Assembly: GCA_017860295.1 (NCBI GenBank)
Contig: JAFNAS010000010.1
Span: 4,151-68,150, forward strand
Reading direction: 5' to 3'
Source of the DNA: Bacteroidota bacterium
GTDB taxonomy: Bacteria; Bacteroidota; Bacteroidia; Bacteroidales; Paludibacteraceae
Length of the DNA stretch: 64,000 nucleotides
This document shows, in pieces, positions 7,177 through 7,309 of the stretch. The stretch's first letter is position 1, and the number at the start of each line of letters is the position of its first letter. The position numbers and the translations under genes are program-made. Below the pieces are notes generated by a model. The model worked only from the letters and a program-made list of their open reading frames with translations. It ran no database searches and was not told the DNA's origin.

Positions 7177-7309
7177 GCCCCACCAATCTCCCCTCAGGGA
7201 GAGGCTTCTCAAATGGTTGAATCAGTAAGAGCTAAGCTGTTGAATTTCTTTATAAATATCTCGCAATGTCAGATTTAATCTCCTCCCCTGTGGGGAGGTC
7301 GGGTGGGGC
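7177..7309. repeat. REP/MITE-like pair of inverted GC-rich palindromic units flanking an AT-rich core
   Basis: Left 7177-7204 GCCCCACC-AAT-CTCCCC-TCA-GGGAGAGG. Right 7282-7309 CCTCCCC-TGT-GGGGAGG-TCG-GGTGGGGC, an inverted copy of the left unit. Confidence 0.75.

Follow-up and report, generated by a model that had tools for sequence, protein, structure and literature searches.

For 25 years BoxC/PIT-type repeats have been known, with neither a role assigned to them nor a mode of spread established. The BoxC/PIT/TMECO repeats of E. coli and other bacteria (Hoyne and Maher 2000; Holder et al. 2015, PMC4666352) have the same class II purine-motif design as the units that we describe here. They have been reported in Proteobacteria, and in E. 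coli K-12 TMECO is always intergenic, without a preferred distance to ORFs (PMC4666352). Published tests of E. coli PIT/BoxC found no promoter, terminator or polymerase-blocking role in vivo, and purine-motif triplexes do not form in RNA (PMC4666352). Among the REPs with GTAG or CGTC tags (Di Nocera et al. 2013, PMC3733652), some copies are part of an ORF. Frequently such a copy is N-terminal, and frequently the gene serves replication or repair, a DNA ligase of Opitutus terrae being one example; REP termini can also provide stop codons (PMC3733652). The RPE (Ogata 2000) and the enterobacterial RU/ERIC elements (Delihas 2007, PMC2759123) are selfish palindromes read in frame in functional, even essential, proteins. 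In-frame repeats of the same general sort as ours, REP- or RPE-like, are already known.

The locus that we compare with these systems is the purE-ligA junction of a Bacteroidales genome (G000). It lies in the window, that is, the whole stretch of 64,000 nucleotides that was analysed, and the gene order purE-ligA-DUF4783-nadC is also seen in relatives. The features of the junction are these:

purE, 6670-7176, + strand: ORF for AIR carboxylase/mutase (PF00731 on the orthologue at locus L167), with TGA stop at 7174-7176.
Unit 1, 7177-7204, - strand: inverted repeat unit, flush with the purE stop, sequence GCCCCACCAATCTCCCCTCAGGGAGAGG; on the + strand it has an outer pyrimidine arm GCCCCACC at 7177-7184 and a hairpin, TCTCCC 7187-7192 / GGGAGA 7197-7202.
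Spacer, 7205-7265, + strand: unique and A/T-rich, holding the ligA upstream region, as seen from the genome search and conservation.
ligA start ATG, 7266-7268, + strand: first start past the in-frame TAA at 7233, present in all four insert-bearing alleles.
Unit 2, 7269-7310, + strand: in-frame repeat of 42 nt, or 14 codons, with boundaries taken from the L166 allele and the empty alleles; box TCAGATT 7269-7275, pyrimidine arm CCTCCCC 7282-7288, loop TGT 7289-7291, purine arm GGGGAGG 7292-7298, loop TCG 7299-7301, mirrored arm GGTGGGG 7302-7308.
Inverted counterpart of unit 1 within unit 2, 7281-7310: sequence CTCCTCCCCTGTGGGGAGGTCGGGTGGGGC, in the ligA ORF, 10 residues.
In-frame GTG within unit 2, 7290-7292, + strand: start chosen by some gene callers (687-aa models).
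TTA (Leu16), 7311-7313, + strand: occupies the native codon 2 site (TCC, Ser, in the empty alleles and in L166).
ligA, 7266-9353, + strand: NAD-dependent DNA ligase of 695 aa, from the ORF and structure homology.

Much of this layout agrees with an earlier note on this DNA, which had described two inverted GC-rich units at the junction, the first of them starting at the base right after the purE stop. Over 22 nt the arms 7178-7199 and 7286-7307 show 77% complementarity, and this rises to 100% for the outer 8 nt (7177-7184 against 7302-7309). The ATG at 7266 does lie between the two units with its upstream frame closed by the TAA at 7233, and for the ligA copy, which is in frame, at least partial translation is unavoidable. 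The statement that no start codon stands between the repeat and the QQQIE codons holds past 7311 (downstream of unit 2 there are only TTA and GTC, hence no ATG, GTG or TTG), but it missed the in-frame GTG at 7290 inside the repeat. Judged by sequence alone, this GTG or the rare table-11 starts ATA 7326 and CTG 7347 might also serve as the start of ligA. The hairpin expected just after the ligA start does form in the predicted mRNA structure, at -15.1 kcal/mol and from +17 to +33 counted from the A of the ATG, although its energy is no better than that of shuffled sequences (z -0.2). An Rfam covariance scan of 6900-7600 returned noise only, the best E being at least 0.6 and far below gathering scores. 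The genome search gave one ligA match only, and LigA homology to solved structures begins at residue 17, which corresponds to residue 4 of E. coli LigA (2owo/4glx).

The suspicion that the units belong to a dispersed palindromic family proved right. Their core pattern is expected 0.02 times in the window, and successive searches of the 3.39-Mb genome with a regular expression, iterated nhmmer and a covariance model gave 27, 40 and 44 copies, respectively. Written in the sense of ligA, the consensus consists of a box, (G)CAGATT or CCGATT, followed by 2-7 nt, a pyrimidine arm, a loop that is usually TTGNG, a complementary purine arm, 2-4 nt, a second purine arm and C-TTY; in nearly all sub-families 2-7 nt separate the box from the hairpin that follows 3' of it. 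The stems vary among copies (CCTCCCC, CCCCTCC, CCCCTCTC, TCCCTCTC, CCTCCTCTCC, TCCCCC and others), and across these differing stems the second purine arm always mirrors the first. A de novo scan gave 115 pyrimidine-loop-purine hairpins, among which the third arm was mirror-only in 32 cases, direct-only in 3 and ambiguous in 16. When strict triplex rules are applied (at least 7 triads, a Watson-Crick stem, and triads limited to C-G-G / T-A-A / T-A-T), the genome holds 27 motifs, as against 0, 0 and 0 in three shuffled genomes; among these motifs there are 10 or more stem types, every one accompanied by a mirrored arm of its own, and all obey the same triad rules. Unit 2 is a perfect 7-triad class II motif without mismatch, made of six C-G-G triads and one T-A-T, the last with T opposite the A:T pair of the stem, while the motif of unit 1 is slightly decayed in G000 and perfect in G008. 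By their letters, the units fall within the definition of the class II G/C-rich intrastrand-triplex motif (PIT/ITxF), which is 5'-pyrimidine arm, purine arm, reverse-Hoogsteen arm-3', with stems of at least 6-7 nt and loops of 1-6 nt. A G-quadruplex reading was also considered and set aside; the G runs are too few in most sub-families.

How close, then, are these units to the described systems? TMECO and the units here both consist of a C-rich arm, a loop of 3-6 nt, a G-rich arm, a loop of about 3 nt and a mirrored G-rich arm; both are G/C-rich with similar second loops (TTA, CCG, TCG), occur in tens of copies per genome with copy numbers that vary strongly between close strains, frequently form inverted pairs, and lie at loci that are rearranged between relatives. 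The exact TMECO consensus, CCCTCNCCC N3-6 GGGNGAGGG N3 GGGNGAGGG, gave 0 matches on both strands of the whole genome. Unlike TMECO, our units have stems of 6-10 nt of many sequences and an extra (G)CAGATT box, they lie in a Bacteroidales genome rather than in Proteobacteria, and they abut ORF ends, where several genes read them in frame, whereas TMECO is intergenic. With the REPs found in ORFs they share the G/C-rich palindrome, the short tag and the variable stem; however the tag here is (G)CAGATT, not GTAG or CGTC, and there is a third, mirrored arm. The likeness to RPE and RU elements is that of a palindrome in frame in a functional, even essential, protein, but RPE/RU units are 100-170 bp long and of other sequence; they lack the triplex design, do not favour the codon behind the ATG and are not accompanied by a nuclease cassette.

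Model matches per genome, all to be read as lower bounds, number 44 in G000, 46 in G002, 38 in G008, 27 in G001, 24 in G006, 17 in G005 and 10 in G010; G025, which belongs to another family, has 32, while five other species of the same genus have 0-4 and other genera of the family 0-6. The copy-number pattern among relatives is patchy and of the expansion type. The repeat family and its placement against gene ends appear to be undescribed so far.

When LigA N-termini are aligned across relatives, the extension is missing from most orthologues. Among 40 relatives searched, residues 1-16 are matched only in G010 and G008, and of the 38 relatives with a ligA match, 36 show alignment only from about residue 15-23 onward, one short contig among these 36 aligning from residue 52 and one distant genome from 102. 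The insert is missing from all 17 upstream regions that were read. Among these, empty ligA genes of the same genus start ATG TCC GTC CAA CAA CAA (MSVQQQIE) or ATG ACT [TC]CC CAA (MT[SP]QQQIE), and the remaining same-genus starts are one-residue variants of these. A search of 5.8 billion proteins found the extension in four LigA lineages only: G000-like, P. jiangxiensis, G008 and the metagenomic protein P0007. The extension had been put at about 15 residues; it is present, but its length is 14.

The allele that encodes P0007 (locus L166) is the most informative of the four. It reads ...ATAAATATTATCGT ATG / GCAGATTTAATCTCCTTCCCTGAGGGAAGTTCGGGTGAAGTT / TCC GTT CGT CAA CAA ATA, with an insert of 42 nt running from GCAGATT to GAAGTT and the native Ser-Val codons directly after it. 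In a base-for-base alignment G000 reads ATG / TCAGATT...GGGGCC / TTA GTC CAA. Since the L166 insert sits exactly between the ATG and native codon 2, the ligA ATG at 7266 is most likely native. The earlier note had proposed that the element itself supplied the ligA start; this proposal is not supported by L166, where a complete GCAGATT box directly follows the ATG and native TCC GTT follows the 42-nt insert. G000 differs at both boundaries, the base after the ATG being T rather than G and codon 16 being TTA rather than TCC, and the insert boundary in G000 therefore rests on the L166 alignment. The two inserts differ at 9 of 42 bases and 6 of 14 residues, with length and frame kept. The L166 stem carries one compensatory change, C:G to T:A, and its mirrored arm has decayed, while LigA is still intact. 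In all four alleles the insert has equal length and no stop. The copy thus lies inside an intact ORF and is absent from orthologues, as in-frame palindromic repeats do, and as judged from these alignments the ligA insert is a derived, in-frame repeat copy after the start codon.

One may ask whether the insert is an assembly artefact, or ligA here a decaying gene. Nothing beyond the oddity itself speaks for either. The in-frame insert is shared by four assemblies that are independent of each other; one of them is a closed 3.5-Mb chromosome, and in another the insert lies on a 1.33-Mb contig from a cultured strain. The ligA ORF, the single ligA match in the genome, is of full length with all LigA domains. 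We therefore consider such an origin hardly conceivable.

The earlier note had also taken the two units as the ends of one MITE. In such a case 7177-7310 would be a single element with two terminal inverted units that brought its own ATG (and promoter) and replaced the native start. Several observations would fit: the outer 8-nt inverted repeat is perfect, the whole block folds into one long hairpin (-59.2 kcal/mol, z -4.7), several family copies read ATGCAGATT, filled and empty alleles differ over the whole block from the purE stop to GTC, inverted unit pairs bracket and fill at least six other intergenic regions, and a true 210-nt MITE with such units is present in G008. However, the 61-nt spacer 7205-7265 has no second copy in a whole-genome search, and L166 has unit 2 together with the same proximal stretch before ligA (ATAAATAT..TCG.A-ATG, common to G000 and L166) without unit 1. 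The complete box after the ATG and the native codons after 42 nt in L166 argue in the same direction, and no target-site duplication was found at the block. Because L166 lacks unit 1 and the spacer is unique in the genome, the alleles indicate that unit 1 and unit 2 are most likely separate insertions and not one MITE, which we regard as a very improbable origin of the block.

Unit 1 is found only in G000, G010 (Paludibacter jiangxiensis) and G008, and among the purE-ligA loci compared it is absent from L166 and from the syntenic G009, G007, G011 and G004; AATCAG at 7220-7225 is a possible remnant of its box. The spacer is nearly invariant over 7230-7265 in the three species. Its homology to the purE-ligA spacers of syntenic relatives, taken over 7205-7265, was not significant (best z 2.1), which made it unusable as proof of an ancestral spacer, and it was the L166 allele that later gave the needed evidence.

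A different start of translation has also to be weighed. If LigA started at GTG 7290, it would have 687 aa and a repeat-derived extension of 6 residues, with the unit's first half left to the 5' UTR; this is where several public gene models (P0003-P0006), from this genome and its sisters, do begin. However, all four alleles retain the ATG, whereas in the L166 insert GAG stands at the place of GTG 7290, which is therefore no conserved start. The GTG also sits in the loop and the first stem base of the -15 kcal/mol hairpin, and the A/T-rich unstructured stretch on which Bacteroidia ribosomes rely, as described in PMC13000457, lies upstream of the ATG and not of the GTG. We find this start improbable, and even with it half of the repeat would still be translated.

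The stretch of ATG and unit 2 is identical at 47 of 48 nt in G000, G010 and G008, whereas only 57% of ligA third codon positions are identical in all three. This difference implies nucleotide constraint or recent exchange, and the 47/48 identity may come from selection or recent recombination, not from neutrality. Might the units then be kept for a function? They could act at gene ends as DNA triplex or hairpin signals, or as mRNA hairpin signals, for instance as a 3'-end stabiliser or insulator after purE and as a modulator of translation or stability at the ligA start, the peptide being a by-product. Besides the identity over unit 2, unit 1 retains a perfect 6-bp hairpin through a register shift despite two substitutions, the rule of position at ORF ends is strong, and the peptide is free to vary, with the 6 of 14 residues changed in L166. 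On the other hand, the L166 mirrored arm decayed with LigA intact, most close relatives lack the units, the E. coli tests of PIT/BoxC (PMC4666352) were negative for the roles named above, and recent recombination can also give high identity. Such a function is conceivable, though we lean against it; it would be compatible with the explanation that we prefer. As RNA does not form triplexes of the purine motif (PMC4666352), a role of the triplex, if it has one, would have to be at the DNA level.

The case for recent exchange comes from the LigA tree, on which the insert needs at least three gains or losses. Here the sister tip of G008 is P0009, which is without the insert (branch lengths 0.004 and 0.003); their coding flanks are nearly identical, but from the base after the purE stop through GTC CAA the two are non-homologous, and P0009 has a palindrome of the CAAAGAA/CTTTGTTC type and ATG TCC instead. 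This comparison indicates that filled and empty purE-ligA alleles pass among close lineages by recombination. More generally, the intergenic regions of the genus look like swappable alleles between near-identical genes.

For solo units elsewhere we looked for empty sites in two ways: the DNA of 14 loci was searched against five close genomes, and 20 loci of G008 and G010 were compared. The coding flanks at the compared loci match by 85-98%, and the intergenic DNA is replaced wholesale. Neither in the five close genomes nor at the G008/G010 loci did we find an empty site of a solo unit with alignable flanks on both sides, or a target-site duplication; the clean empty sites found belong to the 210-nt MITE only. 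We therefore infer mobility of single units from copy number and patchy distribution only, and on that basis the repeat family would be, or have been, mobile.

Two other kinds of element were noted in the same regions. The MITE measures about 210 nt, is bounded by long terminal inverted repeats (GAAGTCATCTTGACTTTT...) and contains two triplex-type units; it is present at C1:51872-52055 of G000 and in at least nine copies in G008 (L137-L145) where G000 has clean empty sites, for example at C2:36185 and at about 35847 of the window (C15:39997-39999). A second, A/T-richer palindromic family (ACAAAGAACAAAGAG ... CTTTGTTCTTTGTTC) occurs at L167 612-700 and upstream of coaD and an epimerase gene in G008, G010, G005, G001 and G002 (L114-L123); these palindromes occupy the same intergenic slots in relatives without triplex units. 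Upstream of coaD in G001 (L118) there is an extra small ORF, a remnant of whose 3' end is seen in G008. By eye this ORF resembles the four-helix-bundle '23S rRNA intervening sequence protein' family.

The position of the copies with respect to genes is far from arbitrary. We used gene calls from a simple codon-usage caller and 40 copies. The mirrored-arm end lies at most 17 nt from an ORF end, or inside it, in 33 of the 40; 11 copies are flush with a stop codon or overlap it by 0-3 nt, and 12 stand 0-17 nt ahead of a start codon. From the box end to the next gene there are 27-1714 nt, with nearly all copies at 35-359 nt. Just beyond both unit ends TA is common, and the ligA site, ATG/TCC, is without it. 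The GGAGG of the mirrored arm stands 4-13 nt ahead of many ATGs. A Shine-Dalgarno role was considered for it and set aside, since the ribosomes of Bacteroidia are reported not to recognise Shine-Dalgarno sequences, and since ligA, coaD and the epimerase gene have the arm downstream of their ATG.

At least four genes read through solo units. In coaD (G000 C22:15669-16172, outside the window) the unit is fused to codon 2 and an in-frame ATG lies 51 nt upstream: five relatives read ...ATG AAA CGT GCC, while G000 reads ATG + 51 nt + AAA CGT, giving MTTDSNSISSPVGRLGGA-KRAIFPGTFDP. A UDP-GlcNAc 2-epimerase-like gene (G000 C1:199853-201028, also outside the window) has its codon 2 fused to a unit in the same manner with the ATG 60 nt upstream; here five relatives read ATG AAA AAA ATT and G000 reads ATG + 60 nt + AAA AAG, giving MTNHTKADSFSPLVEGQGEAL-KKIILVCGARP. 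In leuS a solo unit (SLPPTPSTRGGAK) replaces 8 residues, which are CYDEQQAR or CNQAKQAR in relatives. Four further ORFs run into oppositely oriented units and terminate inside them.

The expectation that a nuclease gene flanked by units of the family might exist was borne out. Both leuS (G000 C13:65190-68456) and ileS (C16, about 71200-71700), outside the window, carry in-frame inserts in the order unit or units, DUF559 domain (PF04480, E 1e-31 to 1e-34), inverted unit, and a third DUF559 gene is free-standing with box-bearing repeats nearby. Of 21 genomes searched (G000 and 20 relatives), four have the leuS cassette, namely G000, G006, G008 and G025 of another family; in 16 of the other genomes the flanking leuS pieces are adjacent or nearly so, for example 9 nt apart in G010. 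The inverted ends of these cassettes share the design of the ligA unit, but the cassettes carry a nuclease while ligA has a solo end unit without one. Since at least 44 units stand against three nucleases in the genome, the DUF559 nuclease may be a passenger of the repeat family. Hairpin-ended DUF559 cassettes read in frame in leuS and ileS were not found in print.

A link to RAYT transposases, which the earlier note's REP-like label implied, fails. A PF01797 search of the genome gave three matches, all outside the window: two intact RAYT-like Y1 transposase genes (G000 C1:262033-262575 and C25:62649-63203) and a broken copy (C25:61412-61882). The two intact genes are flanked by other palindromes, of the CGTCGTCGGATTGCAAATCCGACGAC and GCCACACGATACGC types, one of which is a CGTC-tagged REP (CCGTCGTCGGATTGCAAATCCGACGAC, several copies) and the other of the GCCACACGATACGCTGCGCTAATCGTGTGGC type, and no triplex-type unit lies within 4 kb of either gene. 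We therefore rejected REP/REPIN movement by RAYT for our family, whose conserved tag is (G)CAGATT or CCGATT and not GTAG or CGTC. The RAYT-like genes are a separate REP system in the same genome.

Taken as a whole, we think it probable that a solo 42-nt unit was inserted in frame behind the native ligA ATG and is read through, and that unit 1 is a separate, younger insertion. In this explanation a solo class II triplex-type unit would have entered immediately behind the ATG. Translation from ATG 7266 would then run through unit 2 and place a Ser/Pro/Gly-rich tail of 14 residues before LigA domain Ia. With an in-frame repeat right behind the start of the only ligA, LigA therefore most likely carries a floppy 14-residue N-terminal tail. 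The tail would be tolerated because that terminus is free, and it is probably tolerated rather than useful, because the peptide changes freely. Unit 1, of the same sub-family and in opposite orientation, would have come later to lie flush with the purE stop. Copies of the family lie at ORF boundaries all over this genome, with the mirrored-arm end against the coding sequence, and the units also make up the inverted ends of the in-frame DUF559 cassettes of leuS and ileS. Should purE and ligA share a transcript, pairing of unit 1 with unit 2 could give a -59 kcal/mol structure enclosing the ligA start.

A more far-reaching idea, which we hold to be rather unlikely and offer tentatively, is that the units are the working ends of an undescribed mobile element, with (G)CAGATT-boxed triplex-forming inverted repeats, some with a DUF559/Vsr-like nuclease and many solo or paired. 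If this were true, the element would insert at or beside start and stop codons and in surface loops, would owe its persistence to in-frame reading by essential genes (ligA, coaD, leuS, ileS), and would drive the wholesale intergenic swapping between close lineages. The fusion of the mirrored arm to coding sequence would then reflect insertion chemistry and not selection.

Triplex repeats of the BoxC/PIT type are thus not confined to Proteobacteria and cyanobacteria. Here their position at gene ends obeys a strict rule in this lineage, and they can become part of essential proteins, and the tie between solo repeats and in-frame DUF559 nuclease cassettes gives a handle on how both might move. 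The start models of ligA already disagree (695 against 687 aa), and wherever such units abut genes, gene callers will place starts and stops wrongly. The questions of translation and of triplex formation are directly testable in Paludibacter jiangxiensis, since this species is cultured and has the same ligA allele.
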